DNA of 64,000 bases from Candidatus Methanophagales archaeon. Lineage in GTDB: Archaea > Halobacteriota > Syntropharchaeia > Alkanophagales > Methanospirareceae. The notes beneath the pieces were generated by a model. The model had not been told where the DNA came from and made no database searches. It saw only the letters and a list, made by a program, of their open reading frames with translations. Made by a program: the position numbers and the translations under genes. The DNA lies in contig QENH01000200.1 of assembly GCA_003336485.1 (NCBI GenBank), positions 7,510 through 71,509 of the forward strand, read 5' to 3'. This document shows positions 1 to 55,859 of this stretch, one piece after another; position 1 is the stretch's first letter; each line of letters begins with the position of its first letter.

Positions 1-1
1 C

Positions 2-883
2 GAAATATTAGTGGCAGAGGGTAACTCCACTGATGATACAATGAATATCGTTGAGGCGTACGCGAGAAAATACAAGAACATAAAACTACTAAATAATTCA
101 ACCGGAAACACAGCCATTGGAAGAAATATATGCATAGAGCATGCTACGGGGGAGATGTTAATGAACTACTCCGGTCATGTTATAGCCGAGAAGAACCTTC
201 TTAATGTACTTGCATTAAAACTCTTAAAACTACCTAAAGAGATCGCTGGGGTTGGCTGTTCCAACATTTCTCCTAAGGCACAGAATTTTGTTGGACAGGT
301 GACAGGTGTTGCGTTCTCCGGATTTATGGGTGGCAAAAATAGCTTCCCTCAAAACGAGGTATTCCAAGAGGAAAGATTCGTTGAACACGTTTCCTTTACC
401 TGCTACAGAAGAGGAATAGTCGAAGAAGTTAGTAACTTTGATCCGGAGTTTTGGTGCGGTCAGGACGCTGAGCTCGATATACGAATAAAGAAGGCGGGGT
501 ACAAGCTTTTGTACACTCCGGAAACAAGAGTCTATCATTTCAAGAGAAGTACCTTCCGCTCTCTCTTTAGACAGATGTACAGCTATGGGCTAGCACGGGC
601 AAAGATGGTTAAAAAACATCCTGACACTTTTCGTATAGTTTACCTGTTCGGTTCGGGGTTCATACTCGGCATAATACTTTTGAGCGCCCTTACTATTCTC
701 AAACTTATCCCCCCGGAGCTTATTGCAACTCTTGCGTTACTGTATGTTCTACTTTCTATTATCAGCTCGATTCAAGTTACAAAAAAACCGGGCTTAGTTA
801 TGGCGAGTATTCTCTTTTATTTCGTAACTCATGTTAGCTATGGACTAGGGTTCTTCCGAGGGATATTCTATGGCAAGCTTTAA
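2..883 (+). CDS. Glycosyltransferase family 2, Dol-P sugar transferase-like. The 5' end lies outside the window and the C-terminus has transmembrane helices.
   Basis: The frame is open from position 2. The N-terminus reads EILVAEGNSTDDT, matching the GT2 DxD-region pattern, and hydrophobic helices follow at the C-terminus (LFGSGFILGIILLSALTIL...) as in AglJ/AglD/Dpm1-like enzymes. Confidence 0.65.
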   Translation, partial: EILVAEGNSTDDTMNIVEAYARKYKNIKLLNNSTGNTAIGRNICIEHATGEMLMNYSGHVIAEKNLLNVLALKLLKLPKEIAGVGCSNISPKAQNFVGQVTGVAFSGFMGGKNSFPQNEVFQEERFVEHVSFTCYRRGIVEEVSNFDPEFWCGQDAELDIRIKKAGYKLLYTPETRVYHFKRSTFRSLFRQMYSYGLARAKMVKKHPDTFRIVYLFGSGFILGIILLSALTILKLIPPELIATLALLYVLLSIISSIQVTKKPGLVMASILFYFVTHVSYGLGFFRGIFYGKL

Positions 884-930
884 CCGAAAGAATTTTATAG
901 ATTAATACACTATAAGCAAAGAGGCAGACT

Positions 931-1896
931 ATGGCTAAAATCGGACTCATAGGCGTGGGAAAATGGGGTATAAATCACCTCAAATCTTTGAGTGGACTAG
1001 AATGCGAACTAGTGGGAATTTCGGATACAAATCAGGAAAAAAAAAGTGTCGCCGATGAATATGACATAAAATTCTTTACCGACTACAGGGAACTTCTAAA
1101 GGTGGTGGATGCAGTTACCGTAGTTGTCCCAACCGACCTGCATTATAAGATTGCCAAAGATTGTTTAGAATTGGGAAAGCATCTATTGATAGAAAAGCCC
1201 ATAACGACCAAATCAGAGCAAGCCAAAGAACTTGTCAAGATTGCGGAAGATAAAGGACTTATACTTTCTGTCGGCTATCTATATCGATTCAACAATTCTA
1301 TAAAGAGACTAAAAGAATTGATGGAAGAGATAGGCGAAATACAATATATAACCTGCAGATATATGCATTCCACAAAACCACCAAGAAAAGATTCTGGCGT
1401 TATACTCAACCTGGGTATACACCCTATGGATATACTTAACTTCATCACGGATAGAAGACCACTTAAAGTCTATTCCAAAAAGAAGAATCAGATTTCGGAA
1501 CAATTTGAAGATTCTGCAATGATCGTGCTCGATTATGGCGACTTCTTCGCTACAATTGAGGTCAGTTGCTGTCACCCGGAAAAGAAGAGAGATATGTGGA
1601 TTATCGCCGAGAAAGAGAAGATATACGTGGATTATTTCGAGCAGAAAATCGTAAGGTATCCATTGAAGGTGAGCTATGAAAAAATCGAGAAAGAGGAACC
1701 CGTGGAAGAATCAATAACAAAAAATGAGTCGCTCAAGGACGAGCTCGAATATTTCATCCAATCAGTCGATAAAAAAAACGCGGAGGGGATTTCCAACACC
1801 TTAAACATAGGTAAGGAAGAATATTACACAACAAGGATCTGTGAACTCAGTATTAAATCAGCAGAAACGAGAAAGGAGATGGCACTCCATGATTAA
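931..1896 (+). CDS. Gfo/Idh/MocA family NAD-dependent oxidoreductase (WbpB-like UDP-GlcNAcA 3-dehydrogenase)
   Basis: N-terminal Rossmann motif MAKIGLIGVGKWG, EKP motif (LIEKPI), 321 aa. It sits in an operon with an acetyltransferase and an aminotransferase. Confidence 0.75.
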   Translation: MAKIGLIGVGKWGINHLKSLSGLECELVGISDTNQEKKSVADEYDIKFFTDYRELLKVVDAVTVVVPTDLHYKIAKDCLELGKHLLIEKPITTKSEQAKELVKIAEDKGLILSVGYLYRFNNSIKRLKELMEEIGEIQYITCRYMHSTKPPRKDSGVILNLGIHPMDILNFITDRRPLKVYSKKKNQISEQFEDSAMIVLDYGDFFATIEVSCCHPEKKRDMWIIAEKEKIYVDYFEQKIVRYPLKVSYEKIEKEEPVEESITKNESLKDELEYFIQSVDKKNAEGISNTLNIGKEEYYTTRICELSIKSAETRKEMALHD

Positions 1897-2545
1897 TGTC
1901 TCGGTAGCGAAGACCGCGGAAATAATGAAAAACGTGGAATTGGGAAAAAATGTAGAGATAGGAGACTTCGTTATAATCGGCATTCCCCCAGAAGGCAAGA
2001 AGGAAGGAGAACTTAAGACTGTCATAGGCGATTCTGCCATCATAAGATCTCACACCGTGATCTATGCTGGTACGGTTATAGGAAACAATTTTCAAAGCGG
2101 CAACCATACAGCCATAAGGGAGGGAAATATTATAGGAACTAATGTTAGCATAGGTACAATGAGTGTGGTCGAGTTCAAAACCAAGATAGCAGATAATGTC
2201 CGGATTCATTCCCAAGCATTCATTCCCGAATATTGCGAACTCCATGAGGGATGTTGGATAGGCCCAAACGTAGTGCTGACCAACGCGCCATTCCCAAAAT
2301 CAGCCAAGTCCAAAGAATTCCTGAAGGGTGTCATCATATCCGAAGCTGCAAAAATTGGGGCCAATTCGACTATTCTGCCGGGAGTAAAGATTGGCAAAAA
2401 TGCCTTGGTTGGTGCGGGCAGCGTTGTTACAAAAGATGTGCCTGACGGCAAAGTGGTTGTAGGAAACCCGGCAAAAGTTGTCCGGGACGTTTTTGAATTG
2501 AAATATCCCACAGGCGAAAAGGCATATGAAGAGGGTGAAACATGA
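1889..2545 (+). CDS. Left-handed beta-helix (hexapeptide repeat) sugar N-acetyltransferase (WbpD-like)
   Basis: Repeated [LIV]-G-x-x-x-x hexapeptides (IGDSAIIRSHTVIYAGTVIGNN...). The start is placed at MINVSV, with GGAGA 10 nt upstream and an 8-nt overlap with the upstream gene. The ORF-track start at 1841 lies inside the upstream gene. Confidence 0.75.
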   Translation: MINVSVAKTAEIMKNVELGKNVEIGDFVIIGIPPEGKKEGELKTVIGDSAIIRSHTVIYAGTVIGNNFQSGNHTAIREGNIIGTNVSIGTMSVVEFKTKIADNVRIHSQAFIPEYCELHEGCWIGPNVVLTNAPFPKSAKSKEFLKGVIISEAAKIGANSTILPGVKIGKNALVGAGSVVTKDVPDGKVVVGNPAKVVRDVFELKYPTGEKAYEEGET

Positions 2546-3642
2546 AGATACCACTAGTGGATTTAAAAGCCAATTATCTTTCTATAAAGACGGAGATTGA
2601 TTCTGCAATACAAAGGGTTATAGACAATACAGCATTTATAATGGGCGAGAACGTCAAAAATTTTGAGATACATTTTGCGAATTTCAGCAATGCGAAACAT
2701 GCCATCGGCTGTTCAAGCGGGACCAGTGCTCTCCATCTAGCCCTGATGGCAGCGGAAGTCGGACCTGATGACGAGGTTATAACAGTTCCGAACACCTTCA
2801 TCGCGACTACTGAATGCATAACTCATGTTGGTGCCACAGTAAAGTTTGTTGATGTGGACCCTCAAACACTCCTAATTGATATTGACAAGCTAGAGCACGC
2901 GATAACACCACAAACAAAAGCAATCATCGTTGTTCATCTCTATGGGCAGATGCCGGATATGGAACGGATAAGGGAGATCGGAAAGAAGAGTGACCTAACG
3001 ATAATAGAGGATTCTGCGCAAGCACATGCTGCCGAATTCAAGGGGCACTCGCCAGGTTACTATGGCGATATTGCGACATTTAGTTTTTTCCCCGCCAAGA
3101 ACCTCGGATGCTTTGGGGATGGTGGCGCAGTCGTAACAAATGATGACAAGTTGGCAGAACGAATCAGGTTGCTTGTGGATCATGGTAGGACGACCAAATA
3201 TGAACATAAGATAGAAGGATACAATTATAGGCTTGATGCCTTACAGGCGGCCATACTGGATGCGAAGCTTCCCCACCTTGAAAAGTGGACTCATCTAAGG
3301 CGACAGCATGCAAAATTCTACAAAGATAACTTGCCTTCTGAAGTGAGAACTCCCTCCGAGACTGAGAATTACAAGTATGTCTATTACATGTATGTATTAA
3401 GGACAGACAAAAGGGATGATTTGATGGCTTTTCTAAAAGAGAAAGAAGTAAGTTGCGGTATTCACTATCCCATACCATTACATTTGCAACCTGCTTACAG
3501 TTATAGGGCTTATAAAAGCGGTGACTTCCCCGTTGCAGAAAAGGCAGCAAAGGAGATACTATCGATACCTATTTATCCGGAAATGACGCAAGAACAATTG
3601 CGGTATATAGTCGATAGTATAACGGAATTCTTTAGTATTTGA
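2542..3642 (+). CDS. DegT/DnrJ/EryC1/StrS family PLP-dependent sugar aminotransferase (WbpE-like)
   Basis: 366 aa. Motifs include CSSGTSALHLAL, a ~190-aa spacing to the PLP-lysine region (FSFFPAKNLGCFGDGGAV) and GYNYRLDALQAAIL. It is ATGA-coupled to the upstream gene. Confidence 0.8.
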   Translation: MKIPLVDLKANYLSIKTEIDSAIQRVIDNTAFIMGENVKNFEIHFANFSNAKHAIGCSSGTSALHLALMAAEVGPDDEVITVPNTFIATTECITHVGATVKFVDVDPQTLLIDIDKLEHAITPQTKAIIVVHLYGQMPDMERIREIGKKSDLTIIEDSAQAHAAEFKGHSPGYYGDIATFSFFPAKNLGCFGDGGAVVTNDDKLAERIRLLVDHGRTTKYEHKIEGYNYRLDALQAAILDAKLPHLEKWTHLRRQHAKFYKDNLPSEVRTPSETENYKYVYYMYVLRTDKRDDLMAFLKEKEVSCGIHYPIPLHLQPAYSYRAYKSGDFPVAEKAAKEILSIPIYPEMTQEQLRYIVDSITEFFSI

Positions 3643-3645
3643 GCC

Positions 3646-4536
3646 TCATTTATAGCCTCTCTCATTCTCTTGCAGATAGCGCCCAATTTCTGCTTTCAAC
3701 TCTTCTTGTTCTAACGCAAAATCGATAATCGCTTTTATATAGCCCGTCTTATCTCCCGCATCATATCTCTTACCTTTGAACGAATAAGCAAGAACTTCTT
3801 CCTTATCCATCAGCAGTTTAATAGCGTCCGTAAGCTGGATTTCTGTTCCACTTCCCGGCTTCGTCTCCCTGATACAATCGAATATCGCAGGTGTGAACAC
3901 ATAACGCCCAACGGTACCTATGTTAGACGGGGCTTCTTCTATACTCGGCTTTTCTATTATCTCTTCTATGCGGTAGATGAATTCCTCTATTTCTCGCCCT
4001 TTTATCATCCCATAACTGCTCACCTTCTCTTTTGGAACCTTTTCGACAGCAATTATTGATTTGTTATAGCGCCCAAACAAATTCGTGAGTTGCTTAATGC
4101 AAGGTATCTCCGCCTTTATTATATCATCGCCTAATAAGATAGCGAAAGGTTCATTGCCTACATGCTTTTCTGCCTTTAAAACAGCATCGCCCAAGCCTCT
4201 TGGCTCCTTCTGTCTTATGTAATGGATGTCAACTAAGGCGGATATATCTTTTATTTCTCTCAATAGCGCATATTTCTTATTCTTGAATAAATGGCTTTCC
4301 AGTTCGGGCGAGGTATCAAAATAATCCTCGATAGCCTTTTTGCCCCTGCCGGTAACGATTATAAGATCTTCAATTCCTGCTGCTATTGCTTCTTCAACGA
4401 CAAATTGGATGATTGGGGTATCTATAATAGGTAACATCTCCTTGGGCATGGATTTTGTAGCAGGGAGAAATCTAGTTCCTAATCCTGCTGCAGGTATTAC
4501 CGCTTTCCTTATCGTTTGCTCTGCCATCTTACCCAC
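3646..4536 (-). CDS. Sugar-1-phosphate nucleotidyltransferase (UTP-glucose-1-phosphate uridylyltransferase GalU/AglF-like)
   Basis: N-terminal AVIPAAGLGTRFLPATKSMPKEMLP is the canonical GalU/RmlA G-rich loop. Length is 296 aa. Confidence 0.8.
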   Translation of the reverse strand: MGKMAEQTIRKAVIPAAGLGTRFLPATKSMPKEMLPIIDTPIIQFVVEEAIAAGIEDLIIVTGRGKKAIEDYFDTSPELESHLFKNKKYALLREIKDISALVDIHYIRQKEPRGLGDAVLKAEKHVGNEPFAILLGDDIIKAEIPCIKQLTNLFGRYNKSIIAVEKVPKEKVSSYGMIKGREIEEFIYRIEEIIEKPSIEEAPSNIGTVGRYVFTPAIFDCIRETKPGSGTEIQLTDAIKLLMDKEEVLAYSFKGKRYDAGDKTGYIKAIIDFALEQEELKAEIGRYLQENERGYK

Positions 4537-4648
4537 TTAACCTAGTTTTAATAAATTAAAGCGGACATATATCGCTAATTATATATATGTACCACGCCAG
4601 TAATTATTTTATACTATCTAAGATTTAAGAACTAATAGTGAGTGGGAA

Positions 4649-7249
4649 ATGGATAAAATAAGTATAAATATGAAAGGGCTAGAAAAAACATCAATAATCT
4701 ATGGTGTCATATTGGCGCTGATATTCTGTGTTTCGCTTGCTATACGGGGTGTTTTACCATATGCGAGTGTTTTTACTGATACATTCGTCAAATTTGGCGG
4801 GAATGACCCTTGGTATAAGATGCGAGTGGTGGAAAACATGCTGCAGAACTTCCCGCATCGTATTTACTTCGACCCGTTCACATATTATCCTCATGGTACG
4901 CATTTGGGCGTTGGACCGTTATTTGATTACTTGCTTGCGGTTATTATATGGCTAATCGGGCTTGGGAACCCTTTCGCTACTTTAGGTCAGCAGGGAATAG
5001 AAGTAATAGGCGCCTGGTATCCTGCCGTTTTGGGCGCTCTTACTGTTTTACCGGTCTATTTTATAGGAAAAGAATTATGGGGCAGGAATGCCGGCATTCT
5101 CTCCGCAGCCCTAATCGCTATTCTCCCGGGACAGTTCTTATCCCGTTCTCTATTGGGCTTCACAGACCATCACGTTATGGAAACGCTATTCAGTACGATA
5201 GCAATCCTATTCATCATTTTAGCGATAAAGGCGGCGAAGAAGAATGGAATAACATTTCATACCATATTGGAGAAGGATTGGACTTCTTTGAAGAGGCCAA
5301 TGCTTTATTCCTTCTTCGGCGGCATATTCCTCGGAAGTTATTACCTCGCGTGGATGGGTGCCTCACTCCTCATCTTTGTTCTGATTATCTTTGCAGCGGT
5401 GCAGTATGTGCTAGACCATGTAAGAGGCGTAAGCACTGATTATCTTTGCATTATTGCCGTCCCGGTTTTTATTATTTCGTTACTGATGATTGCCCCCGTG
5501 CCATATATTGGCTCTCTAACGGGCATTTCGTTTATTTCGCTTCTCCTTGTAATAGCTGTATTTCTTATTTTGAGTGCTCTTTCAGTTTTGATGGACAGGA
5601 AGAAAATGAACCCTTATGGGTATCCTATTGCGATATTGGCTGTTGCTGTATCATCCATCATCATTTTGAGCGCTTTGAGTCTACCCATATACTCAAAGAT
5701 TATCGGAGCGCTTCATGTCTTTATTCCTTCTGCGTCCAGTTTGACCATAGCTGAAGTTCATCCAATGCATATTATATCACAATATACCGGTAAGTTCACC
5801 GATGGTGAAGCCTGGCGCTGGTTCACCACGCCCTTTTTCGTTGCCTTCGCTGCTTTTCCCTTGATCGGCTATAACATAGCGAAGAAATTCAGGGCAGAAG
5901 AGATGTTGATCCTTGTATGGAGTGTGGTAATGCTGTTTGCATGTTTTGGGCAGAATAGGTTCGCGGCATATTATGCAGTGAACGTTGCTCTTCTCTGTGG
6001 ACTCGTTTCCTGGAAGCTAATTGAGTTTGTATGGCTTAGAGGCGCGGGCGATGCGGTAGAAAAAGCGGGGGTGAAGATAAAGGGGAAGACGAAAGGGGGA
6101 GCAGGTATGGAGAAGGCGAAGCCTAATAAAAAAGTGCATAATGATGAGAAGAGACCGGAAATGGATAAAGTAAAGCGGTATTTACGTCCGGAGCTCATAA
6201 TTACGTGCATCATCATAGGCGTAGTTGTATTTATCCCACCGCTAAATGCTTCTTTAGCAAGTGCGAAATATGGTGGCGGTCCTGCTGACGATTGGTACGA
6301 ATCTCTCTCCTGGATGCGGAATAACACGCCCGATACAGGTGTTGACTATTATGCACACTATGACCGACCACCGATAAATGAAACAACCGGTAGAATAGAG
6401 GATTATAACTATCCGGAATCGGCATATTCGGTAATAAGCTGGTGGGACTATGGACATTGGATTACGCGCATCGCTCGTAGGATTCCCGTTGCCAATCCGT
6501 TCGGGCAGCAGGGCATAGGGGGGCCGTATCGTGGGAACGACCCCGGTGCGTGCCTATTCTTCGTTACAACGAACGTAAGCGAAGCGAACAATGTTGCCGA
6601 TGCGCTTGACGTGAAATATGTAGTGACAGATTTCATGATGGCCGATGCATTCAACGCATTTTATAATAAATTCGGTGCAATGACCGTTTGGTTTGGCGAT
6701 ACAGAAGGATATTACACTCAAGTTGTCACTGATGATGGTCCTCAAATAGGGCCAAGTACAAAGTATTTCAGCACGATGGTGGCACGACTTCACATATTCG
6801 ATGGTCGGGGTGTAGCACTAAGTGAAGAGTTCTATCTGGAGCCGTTACGCCATTACCGGCTTATTCACGAATCGCCCAGTAGCATAATTGTCATGGGTGG
6901 GCAACCGATAAAATATGTTAAGGTCTTCGAATACGTAGAAGGTGCGAAGCTAAAAGGAACCGCACCTATTGGTTCCATAGTGGAAATAGCGACAAATGTG
7001 TCTACAAATACGGGGCGCGAATATATCTATGCCGAGCGAATGATGTCAAATGGCACATACGAGTTCCCCGTGCCGTATTCAACGGCGGGGCCGATAGAAG
7101 GCGGCACGAATTTTGACGTTTTCGCATCGCCATATAAAGTGAGTGTAGGGTATGTAACAAACGCAACGGTGGCATGGACAGAGGCGAAGGAGATTAATGT
7201 GCCGGAAGAGGCAGTAATGGACGGCAAAATGATAACGGTGAATTCGTAA
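4649..7249 (+). CDS. aglB: Archaeal oligosaccharyltransferase AglB (STT3 family)
   Basis: 866 aa with a multi-TM N-terminal half, the STT3 hallmark WWDYG (SWWDYGHWI) and a soluble C-terminal domain. Confidence 0.9.
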   Translation: MDKISINMKGLEKTSIIYGVILALIFCVSLAIRGVLPYASVFTDTFVKFGGNDPWYKMRVVENMLQNFPHRIYFDPFTYYPHGTHLGVGPLFDYLLAVIIWLIGLGNPFATLGQQGIEVIGAWYPAVLGALTVLPVYFIGKELWGRNAGILSAALIAILPGQFLSRSLLGFTDHHVMETLFSTIAILFIILAIKAAKKNGITFHTILEKDWTSLKRPMLYSFFGGIFLGSYYLAWMGASLLIFVLIIFAAVQYVLDHVRGVSTDYLCIIAVPVFIISLLMIAPVPYIGSLTGISFISLLLVIAVFLILSALSVLMDRKKMNPYGYPIAILAVAVSSIIILSALSLPIYSKIIGALHVFIPSASSLTIAEVHPMHIISQYTGKFTDGEAWRWFTTPFFVAFAAFPLIGYNIAKKFRAEEMLILVWSVVMLFACFGQNRFAAYYAVNVALLCGLVSWKLIEFVWLRGAGDAVEKAGVKIKGKTKGGAGMEKAKPNKKVHNDEKRPEMDKVKRYLRPELIITCIIIGVVVFIPPLNASLASAKYGGGPADDWYESLSWMRNNTPDTGVDYYAHYDRPPINETTGRIEDYNYPESAYSVISWWDYGHWITRIARRIPVANPFGQQGIGGPYRGNDPGACLFFVTTNVSEANNVADALDVKYVVTDFMMADAFNAFYNKFGAMTVWFGDTEGYYTQVVTDDGPQIGPSTKYFSTMVARLHIFDGRGVALSEEFYLEPLRHYRLIHESPSSIIVMGGQPIKYVKVFEYVEGAKLKGTAPIGSIVEIATNVSTNTGREYIYAERMMSNGTYEFPVPYSTAGPIEGGTNFDVFASPYKVSVGYVTNATVAWTEAKEINVPEEAVMDGKMITVNS

Positions 7250-11486: not shown

Positions 11487-11534
11487 CTTGACGAATAGAA
11501 TAATGCAAAAAGATATGAGGTGAAAAAGAAGAAA
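11487..11534 (+). promoter_or_regulatory. Conserved 5' leader/promoter block shared by the three beta-helix paralogs. The other copies are at 14288-14322 and 16057-16107.
   Basis: The block ATGACGAATAGAATAA(A)TG(C/A)AAAAG recurs immediately upstream of each paralog start. Confidence 0.4.
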
Positions 11535-13940
11535 ATGAAAAAACCAATAGCAATTTTATTGATAGCTGCAATATTAACGCTAGGCATAGCTACAAGTGCA
11601 CTGCCATTCTCATTCTCAACTTGCGCAACTACAAATAACCAAGGATCTCCACTACTGGCAACAGCCATGCCAGCACTAGCACAAGGTAGCAATGGCACTC
11701 CTAGCGAAGGCGACGCCAGTAGTATGGAAATTCCCCCGAATGCTGAGGAAAATGAGATAACAACGGGCAAGGAGTACTTAAACACCATACAAATGGACGG
11801 TTCTTCATCAGCTCTTTCACATGATGATACAAAGCTTCCATACAACTCTTCGGGTAACAGACAAAAAGGCAGAGATATGCATACATTAGGGAAAATACCG
11901 AGTGAATCGGAACAGCCAGTAGAAGTATCAAAACCACCATTGAAAGGATCTAAACAGCCAGTAAAAGTATCGAAACCGCCAATTAAAGAATCCAAACAAC
12001 AATTAGTACATAATATAAACACAGGCGAGGACTTCACCACGATCCAAGCAGCAATAGATGATCCTGATACATTGGATGGACATACGATTACGGTTGATCC
12101 GGGAACGTATACGGAGAATGTAGCTGTTTACAAGTCTTTAACTATACACTCAACCACAGGTAATCCATTAGATACGATTGTTCAGACGAATTCTGATGAC
12201 CATGTCGTTAATGTATCTGCGGATTATGTGAACATAAAGGGGTTTACGGTGTCGGTGATAGATGATTGGATGAAGGCGGGAATATATCTCGGAAGCGGAG
12301 TGGATCACTGCACCCTCTCTGATAATAATATGACAGATACTTGGTGGGGCATCTATCTAGATCATTCCAACCACAACTATCTCTCTAACAATAACGCCTG
12401 GTATAACGAGTATGGCATCTCTCTGGATTATTCCAGCAACAACTGTCTCTCTAACAATAACGCCTGGTATAATAACGAGTATGGCATAGGTCTATCTCAT
12501 TCCAGCAACAACTGTCTCTCTAACAATAATATCTCGGATTTTAACTTTTATAGCATCTACCTATTGGAATCTAGCAACAACTCCATCTCTAACAATAATC
12601 TCTGGAATAACGAGGATGGCATATACCTATCTTATTCCAGCGACAACTATATTTCTAACAATAATGGTTGGGCTAACAATGGTTATTTCATTAGGCTGTC
12701 GCATTCCAGCAACAACCATATTTCTAACAATAATGCATGGTCAAACTTCTTGGGTGGTATCCGTTTGTCACATTCCAGCAACAACACGATCTCCAACATT
12801 AATACTTCGAACAACGATTTCTTTGGCATTTGTCTATCTGATTCCGACAACAACGGTCTCTATAACAATAATGTCTCGAACAACGGGGATTATGGTATCT
12901 GCCTCTCTTCCTCGAGTAGCAACACCATCTACAACAACTACTTCAACAACACGAACAACGCCTATGATGATGGAACCAACATCTGGAACATCTCAAAAGA
13001 AAATGGACCAAATATCATTGGTGGTGACTATCTTGGTGGGAACTATTGGAGCGATTACACGGGCATAGATGAAGATGGCGATGGACTTGGAGATACTTTG
13101 CTACCATACAACTCTTCTGGTGAGATCCAAAATGGCGGTGATTTGCGGCCATTAGTTACAGCGTGTTTTACACCGCCGGAGATCACTTCTTCCGCCCCTC
13201 TTTCTCCGGTTAACGATACAATATGCACATGGCGGACATTTAACGTTACGGTAGATCAGACGGTGAACGTGCGCTGGTATTTGAACGATATGTTATTATT
13301 CACGAACCTAAGTGTGCGAAAAGCCGATTGCACACTCCATGCAGAGGTTGTGGGAGAACACAACGTAACAGCAAATGCATCGAATGCAAATGGCTCTGAT
13401 CTGCAGACCTGGATCTGGAATGTGACTGGTTTTACTGCGGAGCCGCCTGAAATAACATACTATGCCCCCAAATCGCCGGTTAACGATACCCGAAATGCAA
13501 CAAGGACATTCAACATCACAATCAATCAATCAGTAAATGTTAGTTGGCAGATAAACGGCACGACAGTTCAGGCCAATGAGGGTCTAACCGAAGCATCATA
13601 CACGAATACAAGTGCGGTCATTGGGACCTGGAACGTTTCTGTGATTGTAAGCAATGCAAATGGGACCGACATGCAGACGTGGATATGGACTGTAACATCA
13701 CCATGTTTCATAGCAACAGCAGCATATGGGACGCCATTGCACGGAGATATAGACGTTTTGAGAGATTTCCGAGACGAATATCTGATGTCGAATCCAACCG
13801 GGAGAGCATTTGTAAAAGTTTATTATAATGCAAGTCCCCCAATTGCTGATTGGATAAGGGCGAATGAAGGATTGGGAACTGCTGTACGGGAAGGTTTTGT
13901 TAAACCATTAGTGTATGTTACGAGGATGTTTGTAGGCTGA
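11535..13940 (+). CDS. Secreted right-handed parallel beta-helix (PbH1/NosD-like) repeat surface protein, paralog 1
   Basis: Signal peptide [22 protein letters not shown] (ORF-track start at 11520 adds a K-rich extension). Sequence features in order:
- K/P-rich 11-aa repeats ([11 protein letters not shown]);
- ~22-aa PbH1 repeats (GIxLxxSSNNxxSNNN);
- NosD-like tail [28 protein letters not shown];
- two ~90-aa Ig-like repeats;
- a conserved C-terminal CFIATAAYG domain. Confidence 0.8.
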
Positions 13941-14322
13941 GCGGGGATATTTTGAACTGAATTCTGTCATCGCGATAACACGTCCCAAAGTTGGCTCTTC
14001 GTCCGTCCAGAACTCCCACATATCTTCATCACACGCCGAGTCATATATTCGCGGTGAATTCTCAGTATTGTCTGTCTCACCCTTATCCCGGTCATTGGTG
14101 AGCCAAGCAGTAGAGGAGAGCAACAATAATTTTTGAAGGGTGTATAGCGCGGTTTATTTCGATTATTCAGCCCTGCTTGTGGAGTCGAAAGAGGTTTCTA
14201 CTTTTGGAGTTATAAGGTCACAACTTGTTTATACGTTATCAACACACCAAAATAACACCTGTTCATTCTACCGAGGGTGTTTTATATCAACATGACGAAT
14301 AGAATAAATGAAAAGGAAAAAA

Positions 14323-15876
14323 ATGAAAAACCCAATAGCAATTTTATTGATAACTGCAATATTAACGCTAGCCATAGCTACAAGTGCACTGCCATTCTCG
14401 GCTTGCGCAACTACAAATAACCAAGATTCTTTGATACGGGCAACAGCCATGCCAGCACTAGCACAAGATAGTAAGGATACTCCCTGCGAAGACAACGCCA
14501 ATAGTATGGGATTTGCCCCGAACGCTGAGGAAAATGAGATAACAACGGGCAAGGAGGGCTTAGACACCATACAAATGGACGGGTCTTCATCAGCTCTTTC
14601 GCATGGCGATACAAAGCTACCATACAACTCTTCTGGCAACATAAAAAATGGCGGAGATCTGCATACATTAGAGAAAAAATCGAGTGGATCGAAACCGCCA
14701 GTGAAAGTATCGAAACAGCCGGTGAAAATATCGAAACCACCCGTGAAAGTATCTAAACTACTTTTAGTTCATAATAGGGACACCGGCAAGAACTTTGCTA
14801 CGATACAGGCTGCGATTGATGATTCTGATACCGTAGATGGGCATACGATTATGGTTGATCCAGGAACGTATACGGAAAATATAGTTGTTTACAAGTCTCT
14901 AACGATCAGATCAACCACAGGTAATCCGGCGGATACGATTGTCCCGGCTGCGGATTATAGAGCTCATGTCTTTAATGTGACCGCGGATTATGTGACTATA
15001 CGCGGGTTTACGGTATCGGGGGCAAATGATTATGATACACTGCCGGCCGGAATATATCTGGGAAACGGAGTGGATCACTGCAACATCTTAGATAATAATC
15101 TAATTGACAATTGGAGGGGCATCGATATATACTATTCCAACAACAACGGTCTCTCTAACAATAACGCCTGGTATAACGAGTATGGCATCGGTCTATCTCA
15201 TTCTAGCAACAACTGTCTCTCTAACAATAATATCTCGAATTTTAACCATTATAGCATCTACCTATTGGAATCTAGCAACAACTCCATCTCTAACAATAAT
15301 CTCTGGGATAACGAGTATGGCATATATCTGTCTTATTCCAGCAACAACTATATTTCTAACATTAATGGTTGGGCTAACAATTGTCATCTCATTACGCTGT
15401 CACATTCCTGCAACAACCATATTTCTAACATTAATGCATGGTTAAACTTCTATGGGGGTATCAGTTTGTCACATTCCAGCAACAACTCTATCTCAAACAT
15501 TAATACTTCGAACAACGATTTCTTTGGCCTCTATCTATCGGATTCCGACAACAACTGTCTCTATAACAATATTGTCTCGAACAACGGGGATTATGGTATC
15601 TACCTCTCTTCTTCTAGTAGCAACACCATCTACAACAACTATTTTGACAACACGAACAATGCTTGGGATGACGGAAGCAACATCTGGAACATCACGCCGA
15701 CCTTAGGCGAGAATATCATTGGCGGTTGCTTGCAGGGAGGTAATTATTGGAGCGATTACACGGGCATAGATGAAGATGGTGATGGACATGGAGATACAAT
15801 GCTACCATACAACTCTCCTGGTGAGATACAAAATGGCGGCGATTTGCGACCATTGGTACCTAGAACGTTTTTATGA
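14323..15876 (+). CDS. Secreted beta-helix repeat surface protein, paralog 2 (lacks the C-terminal domain)
   Basis: It has the same signal peptide and N-terminal region as paralogs 1 and 3, PbH1 repeats and the NosD-like tail, but ends at ...GDLRPLVPRTFL with no Ig-like or CFIATAAYG domain. Confidence 0.7.
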   Translation: MKNPIAILLITAILTLAIATSALPFSACATTNNQDSLIRATAMPALAQDSKDTPCEDNANSMGFAPNAEENEITTGKEGLDTIQMDGSSSALSHGDTKLPYNSSGNIKNGGDLHTLEKKSSGSKPPVKVSKQPVKISKPPVKVSKLLLVHNRDTGKNFATIQAAIDDSDTVDGHTIMVDPGTYTENIVVYKSLTIRSTTGNPADTIVPAADYRAHVFNVTADYVTIRGFTVSGANDYDTLPAGIYLGNGVDHCNILDNNLIDNWRGIDIYYSNNNGLSNNNAWYNEYGIGLSHSSNNCLSNNNISNFNHYSIYLLESSNNSISNNNLWDNEYGIYLSYSSNNYISNINGWANNCHLITLSHSCNNHISNINAWLNFYGGISLSHSSNNSISNINTSNNDFFGLYLSDSDNNCLYNNIVSNNGDYGIYLSSSSSNTIYNNYFDNTNNAWDDGSNIWNITPTLGENIIGGCLQGGNYWSDYTGIDEDGDGHGDTMLPYNSPGEIQNGGDLRPLVPRTFL

Positions 15877-16107
15877 TTGTACGCAATGTTTTGGCTGCAC
15901 AATGAGATTTTTTTATATATATATCAAGCCAAAATGTTCTAGCAAGCAGGTAGCGGCATTTTCCACTTGAAGAGTAAAAAACCCCTATCGTACCCATTTT
16001 ATGAGTCCCTAACACCTATGAATATGACATATTCACCCAACCTATGTCTTTTTATGCAGATATGATGAATAGAACAAATGCAAAAGTATGATGTGGAAAA
16101 GATAAAA

Positions 16108-19100
16108 ATGAAAACCCCAATAGCAATATTATTAATAGCCGCAATATTAACGCTAGCCATAGCTACAAGTGCACTCTCATTCTCGGCTTGCGCAACTACA
16201 AATAACCAAGAATCTTCGACATTGGCAACAGCCATGCCAGCACTAGCACAAGGTAGCAATGGTACCCCTAACGAAGACGACACCAGTAGTAGGGGATTTA
16301 CCCCGGATGCTGTGGCATGTGTCTTAACAAAGGACGTGGTGGCCTTTGATACCGTACAAATGGACGGTTTTGCATCTGCCCTTTCGCATGAAGATACAAC
16401 GCTTCCATACAACTCTTCGGGTAACAGACAAAAAGGCAGAGATATGCATACATCAGGGAAAATACCGAGTGAATCGGAACAGCCAGTAGAAGTATCAAAA
16501 CCACCATTGAAAGGATCTAAACAGCCAGTAAAAGTATCGAAACCGCCAATGAAAGAATCCAAACAACAATTAGTACATAATATAGACACAGGCGAGAACT
16601 TCACCACGATACAAGCTGCGATTGGTGATCCTGATACCGAGAATGGGCATACGATTACGGCTGATCCGGGAACGTATACGGAGAATGTAGTTGTTTACAA
16701 GTCTTTAACTATTCGCTCAACCACAGGAAATCCAGCAGATACGATTGTTCAGGCGGCGGATTCCTATGATCATGTCGTTAATGTGACTGCGGATTCTGTG
16801 ACTATAAGCGGGTTTACGGTGTCGGCGATAGATGGATATGCTGCAGGGATATATCTTGGAAGCGGAGTGGATCACTGCAATATCTCTGATAATAATGTAA
16901 CTGTCACTTATGGGTCGGGTATATATCTAGATTGTTCTAGCAACAACCTTATCTCTAACAATAATGCCTGTGGTAACGGGCCATCTGGCATCGAGCTGTC
17001 TCATTCCAACACCAATACTATCGTTAACAATACTGCAGACTATAATGACGAATATGGAATCCATCTGGATTATTCCAGCAACAACTTCATCTCTAACAAT
17101 AATGCCAGCGGGAATAACGGGCATGGCATCTATCTATCTCATTCCAACAACAACTCTCTTTCTAGCAATAATGTCTCGCAGTGTTGGTATGGCATCTATC
17201 TATCTCATTCCAACAACAACTCTCTTTCTAACAGTAATGTTTGGGGATTCGATGATGATGGCATCAGTCTATATTATTCTAGCAACAATTCGCTCTATAA
17301 CAATAACGTCTGGCTTAGCAGTGGTACGGGCATCCGTCTGTCATCTTCCAGCCACAACTCGCTCTCTAACAATAATGTCTTTAGTAACCTTGCTTTTGGC
17401 ATCGCGCTATATGGATCCAGCAACAACTCTCTTTCTACTAATACCCTAGAAAATAACGATTATGGCATCGAGCTGTCTCATTCCACCTGCAACTCGCTCT
17501 ATAACAATAATGTCTTGAAGAATGATGAGCATGGCATCCACCTCTCTTCTTCAGATAGCAACCTCATCTACAACAACATTTTCAACAACACGAACAACGC
17601 CTATGATGATGGAAGCAACATCTGGAACATCACAAAAGAATATACCCCAAACGGGAACATCATTGGCGGTCCTTACTTAGGGGGGAACAATTGGAGCGAT
17701 TACATGGGCATAGATAAAGATGGCGATGGACTTGGAGATACTTTGATGCCATACAACTCTTCGGGCGACATCCAAAACGGCGGCGATTTGCGGCCATTAG
17801 TGGAACCATCTGAACTACCAGTACATAATACAAACACAGGCGAGAACTTCGCCACGATACAAGCTGCGATTGATGATCCTGATACCGTGAATGGGCATAC
17901 GATTACGGCTGATCCGGGAACGTATATAGAGAATGTAGTTGTTTACAAGTCTTTAACTATGCACTCAACCTCAGGAAATCCATCAGATACGATTGTTCAG
18001 GCGGCGGATTCCTATGATCATGTCGTTAATGTGACTGCGGATTATGTGACTATACGCGGGTTTACGGTGTCGGGGGCATCATATGGATGGGATATAGCGG
18101 GAATATATCTTGGAAGCGGAGTGGATCATTGCACCATCTCTGATAATAATATAACTGACAATGGGTGGGGCATCTATCTGGATCATTCCAGCCACAACCA
18201 TCTCTATAACAATAATGTCCGGGGTAACGTCGGCGTTAATGGCGGCGGAATCAGGCTGTCATATTCCGGCGGCAACACTCTCTCTAACAATAACGTCTTG
18301 AACAACGAGGATGATGGCATCTGGCTATATCATTCCAACAACAACACTCTCTCTAACATTAATGCATCGCATAACTACTTTGGCATCATTCTGTCACATT
18401 GCAGCAACAACTCGCTCTTTAATATTGATGCTTCTAACGCATTCGCAAGCATATGGCTCTCTCAATCCAGCAACAACTCGCTCTTTAACATTAATGCCCG
18501 CCACAGCTCTGGTGACGCCGGCATTGTGCTGTTTCAATCCAGCAACAACTCGCTCTCTAACATTAATGCATCGGATGTCATGGGTTATCCTGGCATACAC
18601 CTCTCATCTTCCAGCAACAACTCGCTCTTTAACATTAATGCCTTTAACAACTTTTTAGGCATCGAGCTGTCAGATTCCAGCAACAACACTCTCTATAACA
18701 ATAATGTCTCGAATAACTATCTGTGGGGCATCGAGCTGTCACATTCCTCCTGCAACTCGCTCTATAACAATAATGTCTCGAACAATTATGATCTTGGCAT
18801 CCGCCTCTCTTCTTCAAACAATAACCGCATCTACAACAACATTTTCAACAACACGAACAACGCCTATGATGATGGAACAAACATCTGGAACATCACAAAA
18901 GAATATACGCCAAACGGGAACATCATTGGCGGTACTTACTTAGGGGGGAACAATTGGAGCGATTACATGGGCATAGATGAAGATGGCGATGGACTTGGAG
19001 ATACTTTGCTGCCATACAACTCTTCGGGCGACATCAAAAATGGCGGCGATTTGCGGCCTTTAGTGGAACCATCTGAACTACCAGTACATAATATAGACAC

Positions 19101-20616
19101 AGGCGAGAACTTCGCCACGATACAAGCTGCGATTGATGATCCTGATACCGTGAATTGGCATACGATTACGGCTGATCCGGGAACGTATACGGAGAATGTA
19201 GTTGTTTACAAGTCTTTAACTATTCGCTCGACCACAGGAAATCCATCAGATACGATTGTTCAGGCGGCGGATTCCTATGATCATGTCGTTAATGTGACTG
19301 CGGATTCTGTGACTATAAGCGGGTTTACGGTGTCGGGGGCACCAAGTTGGGATAGTGCAGGGATATATCTTGGAAGCGGAGTGGATCTTTGCACCATCTC
19401 TGATAATAATATAACTGACAATGGGAGGGGCATCTATCTGGATCATTCTAGCCACAACACTCTCTCTAACAATAATGCCCTGAAGAACTTTTGGTGTGGC
19501 ATCTATCTAGATTATTCCAGCAACAACAAGCTCCTCAACAATACTATCTTTCGAGGCGATTATGGCATCTATCTGGATTATTCCAGCAACAACTTCCTCT
19601 ATAACAATACTGTCGATTGGAGCGGTATGGAAGGCATAATTATGTCACATTGCAGCAACAATTCGCTCTTTAACAATAATGCCTGGGGTGTCAATGGTCC
19701 AGGCATCCATCTATCTTCTTCCAGCAACAACAACAATCTCTCAAACAATAATGCCTGGCATAACCTTGATGGTATCATTCTGTCACATTGCAGCAACAAC
19801 TCGCTCTTTAACAATAACGCCTGGTATAACGAGTATGGCATAGGTCTATATCATACCAACAACAACACTCTCTCAAACATTAATGCATCGCATAACGACT
19901 TTGGCATCTATCTGTATCATTGCAGCAGCAACTCGCTCTTTAACAATAACGCCTTTAACAACTATTTTGGCATCGAGCTGTCACATTCCAGCAACAACTC
20001 TATCTCAAACATTAATACATCGAACAACGATTTCTTTGGCATCTATCTATCTGATTCCGACAACAACTGTCTCTATAACAATATTGTCTTGAAGAATGAT
20101 GAGCATGGCATCCACCTCTCTTCTTCAGATAGCAACCTCATCTACAACAACATTTTCAACAACACGAACAACGCCTATGATGATGGAAGCAACATCTGGA
20201 ACAGCACAAACACCACGGGACCGAACATCATTGGTGGACCTTATATTGGCGGTAACTATTGGTCTGATTATGCAGGTATTGATTCGAATCATGATGGTTT
20301 TGGCGATACGCCTTATAATATACCGCCAGGCGGCATTAGCAAAGATTATTTACCGCTGGTTCCTGTTGAACCATCACCATGTTTCATAGCAACAGCAGCA
20401 TATGGTACGCCATTGCACGATGATATAGACGTTTTGAGAGATTTCCGAGACGAATATCTGATGATGAATCCAACAGGGAGAACATTTGTAAAAGTTTATT
20501 ATACATTGAGTCCACCGGTTGCGGATTTGATAAGGGGAAATGAAGGACTGGGAACTGCTGTACGGGAGGGTTTTGTTAAACCCTTAGTGTATGTTACGAG
20601 GATGTTTGTAGGCTGA
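16108..20616 (+). CDS. Giant secreted beta-helix repeat surface protein, paralog 3 (three tandem NosD-like modules)
   Basis: The same signal peptide is followed by three ~420-aa modules, each starting [22 protein letters not shown] and ending ...[13 protein letters not shown], then the C-terminal CFIATAAYG domain. The ORF-track start at 16078 is an upstream in-frame ATG. Confidence 0.8.
16576..20345 (+). repeat. Three tandem ~1.25 kb coding modules inside paralog 3. They start near 16576, 17824 and 19087, with a period of about 1248-1263 bp.
   Basis: Read directly from the sequence. Module ends are about 95% identical at nucleotide level (for example 17650-17822 vs 18900-19083), while interiors differ in PbH1 repeat content. 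Confidence 0.85.
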
Positions 20617-22996: not shown

Positions 22997-24343
22997 ATGG
23001 ACCTCGAGGGATTTGCGAAGCGGAAATTAAGAGAAGGCGAAGCAGACAGTAGGATAATGGCAGAGTTGTGCACTCGCATATTAGAAATAAAGCGTGATCG
23101 TATAACGAGAGAAAAGGCCGATGCGATTTCTAACGCGGTATTAGAAGAAGCTAAGATGACGCTCGATTTTAATGACGCACTTATCACCGAACTCAAATCA
23201 GACGTAAGAATGGGCGAGTTGGGAGTTGGATCCCGAGGCGCAGGTGATTTTTATGCCCATGAGAAGATAGGCGAGCTAATAGGTGCTACGGGCGCCGTAG
23301 TTGACTCATCGAGCCTGAGTGATTCGGGTGTGGTGCGTCTCCCGGCAGGGAATAAGGAGAAGTTAATTGTGGTGACGGTAGACGGAATGCATTCGCGGCT
23401 GAGCGATTTCCCGTTTCTCGCTGGTTTTCATGTTGCGCGTGCGGCACTTCGTGACGTGTACGTAATGGGCGCCACACCAGTTGCGTTACTTTCAGACATT
23501 CATGTGGCGGATGACGGCGACGTTGCGAAGATATACGACCATATCGCAGGCATTTCCACTGTCTCAGACGCTGCAAACGTTCCGCTTGTTACGGGCTCAA
23601 CATTGAGAATCGGTGGTGATGTGGTAATAGGGGAACGGATGACGGGCTGTGTAGGCGCAGTTGGCGTGGCTGATACTGTCGTAACGAGAGAAGGCGCAAA
23701 AGAAGGTGATCTGATTTTGATGAGCGAAGGCGCAGGTGGAGGCACTATAACCACTGCCGCTTTGTATTACGGTGAACCGGAAGTGGTGCGGGAAACGCTG
23801 AACATAAAATTCCTGGACGCTTGTAATGCGCTTATCAAAGAAGACCTAGTGAAGAAGGTACATCTAATGACCGATGTCACGAACGGCGGAATCAGGGGCG
23901 ATGCAAATGAGATAGCAAAAGTGTCACACGTGAAACTCGTCTTTCATGAAGATCGAATACGTAATTTAGTAAATAAAAAGGTGCTTGCAATGCTAAAACG
24001 GCGTGCGATAGACTATTTGGGCGTATCTCTGGATGCACTTCTGGTCATTTGTCCCGCGGAAGTTGCAGAAGATGTTGAAGCAGTTGTAAGGGGCGCCGGG
24101 GTGCAAATAGTGGAGATTGGCAAAGTTGTAGCGGGAGAAGGTGCTGAAATTGTTGTTGACAGTGAAGCTAAAGATTTTTCGCCTAAATTCCGTGAGTCTG
24201 CTTATACGCCGATAAAGAAGGTTGTGGGTGAATCAGGGCAGAATTTTGAAGCGATGAAGCGGAAAGTGGATAAGGCGGTTGAAGACGCAGTCAGGAAGAA
24301 AGATGCGGTAAAAAGGATTTTGGAATCTTCACAATACCCATAG
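22997..24343 (+). CDS. AIR synthase-related (PurM-like superfamily) protein
   Basis: 448 aa with a PurM-like N-domain (VDGMHSRLSDFPFLAGFHVARAALRDVYVMGATP) and a C-domain, as seen in methanogen PurM-like proteins. Confidence 0.65.
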   Translation: MDLEGFAKRKLREGEADSRIMAELCTRILEIKRDRITREKADAISNAVLEEAKMTLDFNDALITELKSDVRMGELGVGSRGAGDFYAHEKIGELIGATGAVVDSSSLSDSGVVRLPAGNKEKLIVVTVDGMHSRLSDFPFLAGFHVARAALRDVYVMGATPVALLSDIHVADDGDVAKIYDHIAGISTVSDAANVPLVTGSTLRIGGDVVIGERMTGCVGAVGVADTVVTREGAKEGDLILMSEGAGGGTITTAALYYGEPEVVRETLNIKFLDACNALIKEDLVKKVHLMTDVTNGGIRGDANEIAKVSHVKLVFHEDRIRNLVNKKVLAMLKRRAIDYLGVSLDALLVICPAEVAEDVEAVVRGAGVQIVEIGKVVAGEGAEIVVDSEAKDFSPKFRESAYTPIKKVVGESGQNFEAMKRKVDKAVEDAVRKKDAVKRILESSQYP

Positions 24344-25066
24344 ATATATTATTGCAATCAGTACTGGCTGATGAATAAGGTAAATTAGTAATGAATGCCT
24401 ACCAAAAAGGCAAAGCAATCTTATAACCGCGGAATTAGAAAGGTCACAAAGGTTAAAACGCCGTGTGCAGTCGGGATATAACATATATCCAAGAAATAGC
24501 CCGATTAGGATCACGCCGAACCAGGGTAAAATCGGGAAATAGTCTATAGTATAAAAGTGCTCGGGCGTGAGCCCTAACCACATCAACCAGGAGAACCCCA
24601 AAGTATAGTTCTTTAAGTATAGTCCAAGCGATACGAAAAGAACACCCGGCATCAGATTCCATAAACGGAGTTTTAAGAATGGATAAGCCATAATAATCGA
24701 AATCCCAATAAGATGAAGAACACCAAAAACAACAAAACCCGCTCGCAAAAAGAGCCAGGTCGCTATGCTGATGACCAAACCCCATGCAAATATTTTTAGA
24801 CCCCGTTTGAGATATTTCCGGTATAATCTCTTCCTCTGTTTCTTCTTAGCTCTAGAGTAACTAATGGTTAGTGAGATACCGACCAGAAGAATAAATATTG
24901 TCGCTGTTGCACGCCCAAAATATAACCAGAAACCTGAATGTACGTTAAGATCGTATCCGCCAAAATAATCCAGATCGTAGAGTAAATGGAACAGGATCAT
25001 CATGAATATAGCAATTCCACGCATAAAATCTAGCTCCCAAAATCGCTGCTCCAACTTATTAGCCAT
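24329..25066 (-). CDS. DUF1624 / acyltransferase-3-like integral membrane protein
   Basis: The start is placed at MANKLEQRFWELDFMRGIAIFMMILFHL, the FMRG..I motif of the DUF1624 / heparan N-acetyltransferase-like family. The protein is multi-TM. Confidence 0.55.
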   Translation of the reverse strand: MANKLEQRFWELDFMRGIAIFMMILFHLLYDLDYFGGYDLNVHSGFWLYFGRATATIFILLVGISLTISYSRAKKKQRKRLYRKYLKRGLKIFAWGLVISIATWLFLRAGFVVFGVLHLIGISIIMAYPFLKLRLWNLMPGVLFVSLGLYLKNYTLGFSWLMWLGLTPEHFYTIDYFPILPWFGVILIGLFLGYMLYPDCTRRFNLCDLSNSAVIRLLCLFGRHSLLIYLIHQPVLIAIIYLWVL

Positions 25067-25146
25067 TAAAAACGAAATGTAAACGAAAGCTTTTATATTC
25101 AGAAACTTTGATATTGGATTATAACTCACGTGAAGGGTAGTGCGAA

Positions 25147-26844: not shown

Positions 26845-26901
26845 TCGTCTGTATTTTTCTTTTGAGTTCAAAACACAGATTATCGCCTTTAGCCCTTACC
26901 C

Positions 26902-40503: not shown

Positions 40504-40513
40504 GCCAACCTCT

Positions 40514-55568: not shown

Positions 55569-55859
55569 ATGGAGAATGGCGGGATAAAGATAAAGGTAGT
55601 GGAAAGGGCGGAGAATGAGCTGCGGCTGGAGATAGAAGGGGAGGGCAATACGCTTTTAGCACCGCTGACTTCCAAGCTCCTGGAGAATGAAAATGTAGAC
55701 CTAGCAACCAATAGCATGACACATTCGCTGCTGGGCAATTCCATATTGTATGTGAAGATGAAGGAGGGTGATGCTTTAGAAGCCATAAAATCTGCACTTA
55801 CTTCTCTTGCTTCCGACTTTGAAGAGTTTGGGCGGAAATACCGGGCGGCAATAGTCTAG
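55569..55859 (+). CDS. rpoL: DNA-directed RNA polymerase subunit L (Rpo11)
   Basis: 96 aa. IKVVERAENELRLEIEGEGNTLLAPL matches the Rpo11 N-terminus. Confidence 0.8.
   Translation: MENGGIKIKVVERAENELRLEIEGEGNTLLAPLTSKLLENENVDLATNSMTHSLLGNSILYVKMKEGDALEAIKSALTSLASDFEEFGRKYRAAIV

Follow-up and report, generated by a model that had tools for sequence, protein, structure and literature searches.

The left end of a 64,000-nt stretch of a Candidatus Methanophagales archaeon (contig QENH01000200.1; the whole stretch is hereafter the window) carries the 3' half of an island of N-glycan biosynthesis (agl) genes belonging to an ANME-1 (anaerobic methanotrophic archaea, group 1; Methanophagales) archaeon, an ordinary kind of system in an uncharacterised lineage. 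The island combines a membrane glycosyltransferase of family GT2, a trio of sugar enzymes (a Gfo/Idh/MocA oxidoreductase, a hexapeptide acetyltransferase and a DegT aminotransferase), GalU and the archaeal oligosaccharyltransferase AglB. In the reading of the whole that we prefer, at a probability of roughly 55%, the trio would convert uridine diphosphate (UDP)-N-acetylglucosamine (UDP-GlcNAc) into the neutral diacetamido sugar UDP-GlcNAc3NAc, which the GT2 and AglB would bring to Asn residues of proteins. A first-pass annotation of this DNA recognised the island correctly but over-interpreted its specific product, which it gave as the uronic acid UDP-GlcNAc3NAcA.

The assignment to an archaeal agl-type N-glycosylation island is borne out by an AglB with a complete motif set and by the sugar genes clustered with it. 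All six genes named in the first-pass annotation were found in the list of open reading frames (ORFs) and by profile searches (Table 1), with galU on the minus strand and WWDYG in AglB. The AglB carries the Pfam domains STT3, AglB_core-like and AglB_L1, has about 11-12 predicted hydrophobic segments and aligns over its full length with Archaeoglobus fulgidus AglB-L (3waj, 5gmy; 7e-98). Although the aligned segments are clearly diverged, the 3waj alignment keeps GGNDPWY, (T/N)DHH, LTIAEV (TIAE identical) and an identical WWDYGHWI, so the enzyme looks catalytically complete. AglB and the adjoining Ftr are 89-91% identical to fragments of Methanophagales (ANME-1) metagenome-assembled genomes, which places the stretch in ANME-1; full-length ANME-1 AglBs share 61-68% identity with the window protein. 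As a separate observation, AglB homologues of 36-43% identity over ~700 residues are carried by many contigs assigned in binning to Dehalococcoidia/Chloroflexota and by a few assigned to Nitrospirota or Thermodesulfobacteriota (L045, L046, L054, L056, L058-L064, L067, L069-L072, L076, L078-L080), reflecting either an archaeal-type oligosaccharyltransferase in bacteria or a binning error.

The island is larger than the window shows. A Logan contig (L001) that matches the window without a difference across 7,314 nt adds 10 kb of upstream sequence encoding the complete 328-aa GT2 (L001 8967-9953), two GT4 glycosyltransferases, a LegB/RmlB-like 4,6-dehydratase, a PseC/LegC-like aminotransferase, an LpxD-like hexapeptide acyltransferase (307 aa; 187 bits against a cut-off of 207) and two further proteins (195 and 182 aa) that matched no family in Pfam or NCBIfam. 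The dehydratase, aminotransferase and acyltransferase suggest a second amino-sugar route, acting at C-4, whose product would be an N-acylated 4-amino-4,6-dideoxy sugar. Past aglB come housekeeping genes, which encode Ftr, an NTPase, a PRK04334 protein and ThiC. The island thus ends at aglB and reaches ~8 kb beyond the left edge of the window: of the span first proposed, 2-7249, the right end stands and the left does not, as seven sugar genes lie within ~8 kb upstream. The 12 kb upstream of aglB hold three glycosyltransferases, two amino-sugar routes and GalU, the composition of an agl cluster, and in archaea sugar genes are grouped with aglB in clusters that vary among species (PMC11407970; PMC2952790).

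Within the window, the genes are closely packed, but the earlier description of their coupling as mostly ATGA is inaccurate. Specifically, a 47-nt gap separates the GT2 from the oxidoreductase gene, the oxidoreductase and acetyltransferase genes overlap by 8 nt (ATGATTAA), and an ATGA junction occurs only between the acetyltransferase and aminotransferase genes, one of the three junctions. The galU gene faces the trio, with 3 nt between the two stop codons, and points away from aglB. The AT-rich region between galU and aglB, with TATA-like runs (TTATATATAT and TTTAATAAAT among others), is presumed to be a bidirectional promoter region. Rfam and tRNA scans of positions 1-7249 returned nothing.

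At the family level, the trio is well supported as a sugar C-3 dehydrogenase, a 3-aminotransferase and a 3-N-acetyltransferase, in keeping with the oxidation, amination and acetylation at C-3 read from these genes before. The best family for the oxidoreductase is NF040723, the archaeal UDP-GlcNAc 3-dehydrogenase family with MMP0352 as equivalog (222.5 bits), followed by the inositol 2-dehydrogenase iolG (103 bits). Its best match in the Protein Data Bank (PDB) is 7bvj (7e-26, 94.5 bits), while 3q2k, which we take to be the WlbA entry, reached 47.6 bits over the N-terminal Rossmann part only. The 7bvj protein is named GnnA, UDP-GlcNAc 3-dehydrogenase, in a Borg preprint. The acetyltransferase best matches QdtC (3fs8; 2.5e-42, 147.9 bits), followed by a WxcM-like protein (4mzu; 2e-27), WlbB (3mqg; 6e-19, 71.5 bits) and maltose acetyltransferase (3e-15, 59 bits). 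The aminotransferase has full-length matches to 7b0d (3e-107), QdtB (3e-101), DesV (2oga; 2e-90) and WbpE (3nyu and 3nu7; 2-3e-83, residues 3-361), with 7b0d and QdtB above WbpE, and its FSFFPAKNLG segment, read from the sequence without an alignment, holds the candidate pyridoxal phosphate (PLP) lysine. Assignment of the three enzymes to unrelated subfamilies was ruled out by the margins over inositol dehydrogenase (103 against 222 bits) and maltose acetyltransferase (59 against 148 bits).

From these assignments, the likeliest product of the trio is a UDP-3-acetamido-3-deoxy sugar that is neutral (GlcNAc3NAc or Glc3NAc). In the scheme that we favour, the oxidoreductase would oxidise a UDP-hexose derivative, most probably UDP-GlcNAc, at C-3, the DegT enzyme would transaminate the resulting 3-keto sugar, and the hexapeptide enzyme would N-acetylate the new amine, most likely yielding UDP-GlcNAc3NAc and not a uronic acid. 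The co-conserved membrane GT2 would then add this sugar to a dolichol-linked glycan; GalU would supply UDP-glucose for other residues; the upstream GT4s, 4,6-dehydratase, 4-aminotransferase and acyltransferase would provide further sugars, including a 4-amino-4,6-dideoxy sugar; and AglB would attach the completed glycan to Asn residues in secreted proteins. UDP-GlcNAc is favoured as substrate because the two best characterised relatives of the oxidoreductase, NF040723/MMP0352 and GnnA, act on UDP-GlcNAc itself, the latter without prior oxidation at C-6; MMP0352 has been used as a UDP-GlcNAc dehydrogenase (bioRxiv 10.1101/2023.03.18.533286).

The uronic acid, UDP-GlcNAc3NAcA, is unsupported as the product. 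The canonical route opens with the 6-dehydrogenase WbpA, and only then does WbpB act, on UDP-GlcNAcA (PMC10622841); since the window and the 10 kb upstream of it hold no 6-dehydrogenase, that route lacks its first step locally, and with it UDP-GlcNAc dehydrogenase activity. Specifically, tblastn against the window plus L001 (74 kb) with four UDP-sugar 6-dehydrogenase queries of archaeal or metagenomic origin, two WecC-like (from contigs L083 and L087) and two AglM-like (from L085 and L086), gave no match with E < 0.49, and UDPG_MGDP_dh was absent in Pfam scans of 30 of the larger ORFs downstream of 11.5 kb, in which only housekeeping and envelope genes were found. In the same 74 kb, tblastn found no UDP-GlcNAc 2-epimerase homologue at E≤1.

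The trio could nevertheless be a WbpB/E/D equivalent whose WbpA-type 6-dehydrogenase is encoded in another part of the genome, although we judge this unlikely. The substrate would then be the uronic acid, with NAD recycling coupled to 2-oxoglutarate. Reportedly, by the title of Siu et al. 2015, M. maripaludis uses the Pseudomonas pathway, and GlcNAc3NAcA is established in the Methanococcus N-glycan (PMC2952790). The strong WbpE match and an oxidoreductase orthologue of 58% identity in L087, which has a WecC-like dehydrogenase directly 5', are in line with such a role. The lack of a 6-dehydrogenase in the 74 kb, the order of steps in Pseudomonas, where WbpB follows WbpA, and the short, Rossmann-only match to 3q2k all argue the other way, as does the comparative evidence below, in which the usual dehydrogenase partner of these genes is of the UDP-glucose and not the HexNAc type, and a WlbB-type acetyltransferase belongs to another, co-occurring trio.

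In a survey of 80 metagenomic loci, the GT2, oxidoreductase, acetyltransferase and aminotransferase genes recur in this order as a conserved cassette, with 58-78% identity. The survey drew on 528 oxidoreductase homologues, the closest at 96% identity and many at 55-75%, several of them labelled UDP-GlcNAc 3-dehydrogenase by JGI; 11 independent contexts, the window included, had enough downstream sequence for gene-order counts. Several of its results, together with other features of the island, weigh against our preferred reading, first with respect to the substrate. A convergent galU directly follows the aminotransferase gene in 10 of the 11 contexts, and an AglM/TuaD-like 6-dehydrogenase of the UDP-glucose type comes next in eight, the cassette-linked dehydrogenases reaching 419-520 bits with AglM and 196-214 with UDP-ManNAc dehydrogenase; this linkage hints at a glucose-derived substrate. 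Further, at 222.5 bits the oxidoreductase reaches half of the curated NF040723 cut-off of 450 and falls below paralogues in L083 and L087 (347 and 369 bits, themselves under the cut-off), so its substrate may differ from UDP-GlcNAc. QdtC, whose substrate is a 2-hydroxy sugar, also outscores WlbB as a match to the acetyltransferase (148 against 71.5 bits).

These paralogues belong to a second set of genes. In L083, a complete further trio lies near a WecC/WbpA-like 6-dehydrogenase and includes a 191-aa acetyltransferase that matches WlbB at 2.3e-44, and in L087 a second oxidoreductase and aminotransferase adjoin a dehydrogenase of the same type. By these scores and neighbours, the second set is a better candidate for the Methanococcus/Pseudomonas-type pathway than the window trio, which belongs to a distinct paralogous subfamily, presumably with different chemistry. 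Because the second set co-occurs with the cassette in L083 and L087, the two appear to be non-redundant. The description of the window genes as a WbpB/D/E-like set holds for the WbpE-type aminotransferase (2e-83); as a whole, the trio is probably not of the MMP0352/WlbB type, for which a higher-scoring paralogous set exists in L083 and L087. As a means of separating the two trio types, the PDB ranking of the aminotransferases was uninformative (the L083 paralogue scored 241 bits on WbpE and the window enzyme 283), and that of the oxidoreductases was weakly informative, GnnA being matched by both paralogues. What is new here is modest, namely a distinct and widely distributed cassette and a GT2 without a DxD motif.

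The same observations frame a serious alternative, in which GalU would make UDP-glucose, the trio would turn it into UDP-3-acetamido-3-deoxy-glucose (N-acetyl-kanosamine), the GT2 would transfer that sugar, and relatives with the AglM-like enzyme would make the glucuronic acid form. We hold this route to be possible, albeit tentatively, and sequence alone cannot choose between UDP-GlcNAc and UDP-glucose. Besides the galU and AglM/TuaD-type linkage, it would account for an acetyltransferase nearer QdtC than WlbB, an aminotransferase nearer QdtB than WbpE, and the non-redundant chemistry implied by the MMP0352-closer trio near a WecC-like dehydrogenase, and it has a precedent in RifL/RifK, which carry out C-3 oxidation and transamination of UDP-glucose to UDP-kanosamine (PMC8788734), likewise with an oxidoreductase and DegT-family amination. 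RifL/RifK differ in serving secondary metabolism, with no acetyltransferase or glycosyltransferase, and the match to 3-amino-5-hydroxybenzoate (AHBA) synthase/RifK is far weaker (130 bits) than those to WbpE/QdtB (283-342 bits). Further, the closest characterised oxidoreductases are UDP-GlcNAc-specific, and GalU plus Ugd form a self-sufficient UDP-GlcA branch (compare AglF/AglM) that needs no link to the trio. The pairing of galU with aglB also recurs in ANME-1 loci that have no trio, galU lying 5' of aglB in opposite orientation in L002, L003, L008 and L017, and the literature searched held no report of Glc3NAcA or UDP-Glc3NAc. We likewise know of no Glc3NAc-type sugar in an archaeal N-glycan. 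A stronger form, which we find rather doubtful, takes the cassette as a single pathway that starts at glucose-1-phosphate and ends in a UDP-3-acetamido-3-deoxy-gluc(uron)ic sugar, with the ANME-1 version, having no dehydrogenase, placing N-acetyl-kanosamine on surface proteins via AglB.

The island can be compared with several characterised systems. The M. maripaludis MMP0350-MMP0353 and P. aeruginosa WbpA/B/E/D(/I) pathways comprise the same three chemistries (Gfo/Idh/MocA, DegT and left-handed beta-helix), the former in the setting of an archaeal N-glycan, as here. They differ in that the window trio has neither a 6-dehydrogenase nor a 2-epimerase nearby, an oxidoreductase at 222 bits against the 450 cut-off and a QdtC-like acetyltransferase; the closer counterpart is the separate co-occurring set, with its full trio in L083 and its oxidoreductase and aminotransferase in L087. 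GnnA/GnnB, which convert UDP-GlcNAc to UDP-GlcNAc3N, resemble the trio through 7bvj, the top structure match of the oxidoreductase, but form part of bacterial lipid A synthesis, where the amine receives an acyl group from LpxA-type enzymes and is not acetylated. To our knowledge, archaea have no lipid A. QdtB/QdtC of Thermoanaerobacterium thermosaccharolyticum, which make deoxythymidine diphosphate (dTDP)-Quip3NAc, are the best named matches (QdtB 3e-101, QdtC 2.5e-42), and their product decorates an S-layer glycoprotein glycan, a surface setting like that proposed here. There, however, the 3-keto sugar arises from dTDP-glucose through a 4,6-dehydratase and a 3,4-ketoisomerase, whereas the window has a Gfo/Idh/MocA dehydrogenase and no isomerase. 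Finally, the Haloferax volcanii agl cluster (AglF of the GalU type, AglM and AglB) shares the GalU-type uridylyltransferase beside aglB, and its AglM has a parallel in the AglM-like gene next to galU in the cassette relatives, which is missing in the window; a module for amination at C-3 is absent from Haloferax.

The points that weigh against the preferred reading also touch the glycosyltransferase and the tie to AglB. The GT2 lies directly 5' of the oxidoreductase gene in most orthologous contexts (58-69% identity), scores 41.7 bits on PF00535 against a gathering score of 23.3, passes the thresholds of PF13632 and PF13641, and has predicted C-terminal hydrophobic helices at about aa 250-294. 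A canonical DxD motif was not found in it: S92-G93-H94 aligns with the D-A-D of PcManGT, a crenarchaeal mannosyltransferase (structure entry 6yv7). The segment MNYSGH is invariant across five GT2 orthologues (with L081, L083, L085 and L086 among their contigs), and the first acidic motif reads E-G-x-S-T-D, not D-x-x-S-T-D. Neither a priming transferase (AglH/PF00953-type) nor a Wzx-type flippase was found by tblastn at E≤1 in the window plus L001; the GT2 could itself prime the glycan. No aglB lies within 10 kb of the cassette in the ~10 other contexts, and among 79 ANME-1, Syntrophoarchaeum and Methanosarcinales loci the trio is absent beside aglB, with only the galU-aglB pairing recurring.

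Such a distribution would fit a cassette that builds a non-protein glycoconjugate (an exopolysaccharide, a glycolipid or an envelope polymer) and lies beside aglB incidentally. The context in L085, with heptosyltransferase and HldE-like genes typical of bacterial lipopolysaccharide, and a homologue labelled KSB1 bacterium point in the same direction. We consider this improbable: the genes form a tight group that includes aglB, galU and aglB share the 121-nt divergent region presumed to hold their promoters, no polymerase or chain-length genes are visible, and in archaea the agl genes are typically found together with aglB and differ from strain to strain (PMC11407970).

ANME-1 are uncultured methane-oxidising archaea of marine sediments, and we know of nothing experimental on their protein glycosylation; a full-text literature search found no paper that treats AglB or oligosaccharyltransferase in ANME-1. 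Systems of this kind are familiar, and the island does not challenge current understanding. It does make specific predictions, a glycan residue of 244.106 Da (GlcNAc3NAc) and not 258.085 Da (GlcNAc3NAcA) and, from the upstream route, a 4-amino-4,6-dideoxy sugar, which could steer glycoproteomic work on ANME-1 cells or the choice of lectins and antibodies to probe them. Annotation of the oxidoreductase subfamily also gains from the comparative result: because the cassette is distinct from the MMP0352-closer trio with which it co-occurs in two contexts, the pipeline label UDP-GlcNAc 3-dehydrogenase may be wrong for it.

Table 1. Features of the island, its relatives and the rest of the window. 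Positions are those of the window unless a contig is named.
Feature	Position	Strand	Details
Membrane GT2, 3' 293 codons	2..883	+	35 N-terminal residues lost to window edge
Gfo/Idh/MocA NAD-dependent nucleotide-sugar 3-dehydrogenase (predicted), 321 aa	931..1896	+	PF01408 102 bits; PF22725
Left-handed beta-helix (hexapeptide) 3-amino-sugar N-acetyltransferase (predicted), 218 aa	1889..2545	+	PF00132 87 bits
DegT/DnrJ/EryC1 PLP-dependent sugar 3-aminotransferase (predicted), 366 aa	2542..3642	+	PF01041 405 bits
GalU, UTP-glucose-1-phosphate uridylyltransferase, 293 aa	3646..4527	-	TIGR01099 390 bits, cut-off 326.8
Divergent galU/aglB intergenic region, AT-rich, 121 nt	4528..4648	.	GC 0.29, island 0.43
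AglB, archaeal oligosaccharyltransferase (STT3 family), 866 aa	4649..7249	+	TIGR04154 730.7 bits, cut-off 450
WWDYG catalytic motif of AglB, aa 598-602	6440..6454	+	Regular expression on translation; identical in 3waj
Second amino-sugar route, upstream of window	L001:2345-6486		4,6-dehydratase, aminotransferase, LpxD-like acyltransferase
Second set, full trio	L083:5036-7676		Near WecC/WbpA-like 6-dehydrogenase
Second set, oxidoreductase and aminotransferase	L087:6675-10000		Adjoining WecC/WbpA-like dehydrogenase
Three paralogous NosD/parallel beta-helix secreted proteins	11520-20616		Signal peptides; Asn 13-15.5%
Membrane acetyltransferase	24329-25156		HGSNAT_cat/Acyl_transf_3, 277 bits; overlaps start of cupin-type glucose-6-phosphate isomerase gene (25147-25872)
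CPBP/Rce1-like protease	26026-26844	+	
EpsI-like DUF3485 protein	26902-27774	-	7 sequons
EpsH-family exosortase, eight transmembrane segments	27771-28628	-	TIGR02602 125.7 bits, above cut-off; resembles XrtA, XrtW, XrtV
PGF-CTERM protein	39367-40533	-	Glucodextran_B domain
765-aa protein	40514-42811	-	C13 peptidase and CUB domains; overlaps PGF-CTERM gene start
tRNA-Gly(CCC)	55845-55915		Sole RNA gene in window
Type I restriction enzyme HsdR	58501-61530		TIGR00348 541 bits

Candidate substrates of AglB lie nearby. The first of three paralogous beta-helix proteins starts 4.27 kb past aglB, which agrees with the earlier description of three sequon-dense surface proteins 4 kb away as to distance. 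As to density, they contain 29, 7 and 47 sequons, against 19.5±3.7, 12.9±3.0 and 43.1±5.5 in composition-preserving shuffles; only the first is enriched beyond composition (~1% of shuffles reach 29), and the second is depleted. Sequon density as a sign of co-adaptation was thus largely rejected, as the richness of the beta-helix proteins in Asn accounts for it in all but the first. The proteins are plausible AglB substrates, although the sequon statistic is no evidence of coupling. Their signal peptides are near-identical, ending in ...SALPFS(A/T)CATTNNQ or a close variant, an ending that may be lipobox-like, and the first and third, unlike the middle one, carry a C-terminal CFI-box-CTERM domain (NF041770; 89 and 86 bits).

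Elsewhere in the window, positions 26026-28628 hold a bacterial-style exosortase set in this ANME-1 genome, made up of the EpsH-family exosortase, the EpsI-like protein and the CPBP/Rce1-like protease; archaeosortase A was not among the matches of the exosortase. The PGF-CTERM protein, whose gene start is overlapped by that of the 765-aa peptidase-domain protein, implies an archaeosortase A system elsewhere in the genome. Finally, the membrane acetyltransferase at 24329-25156 may be a glycan-modifying enzyme.

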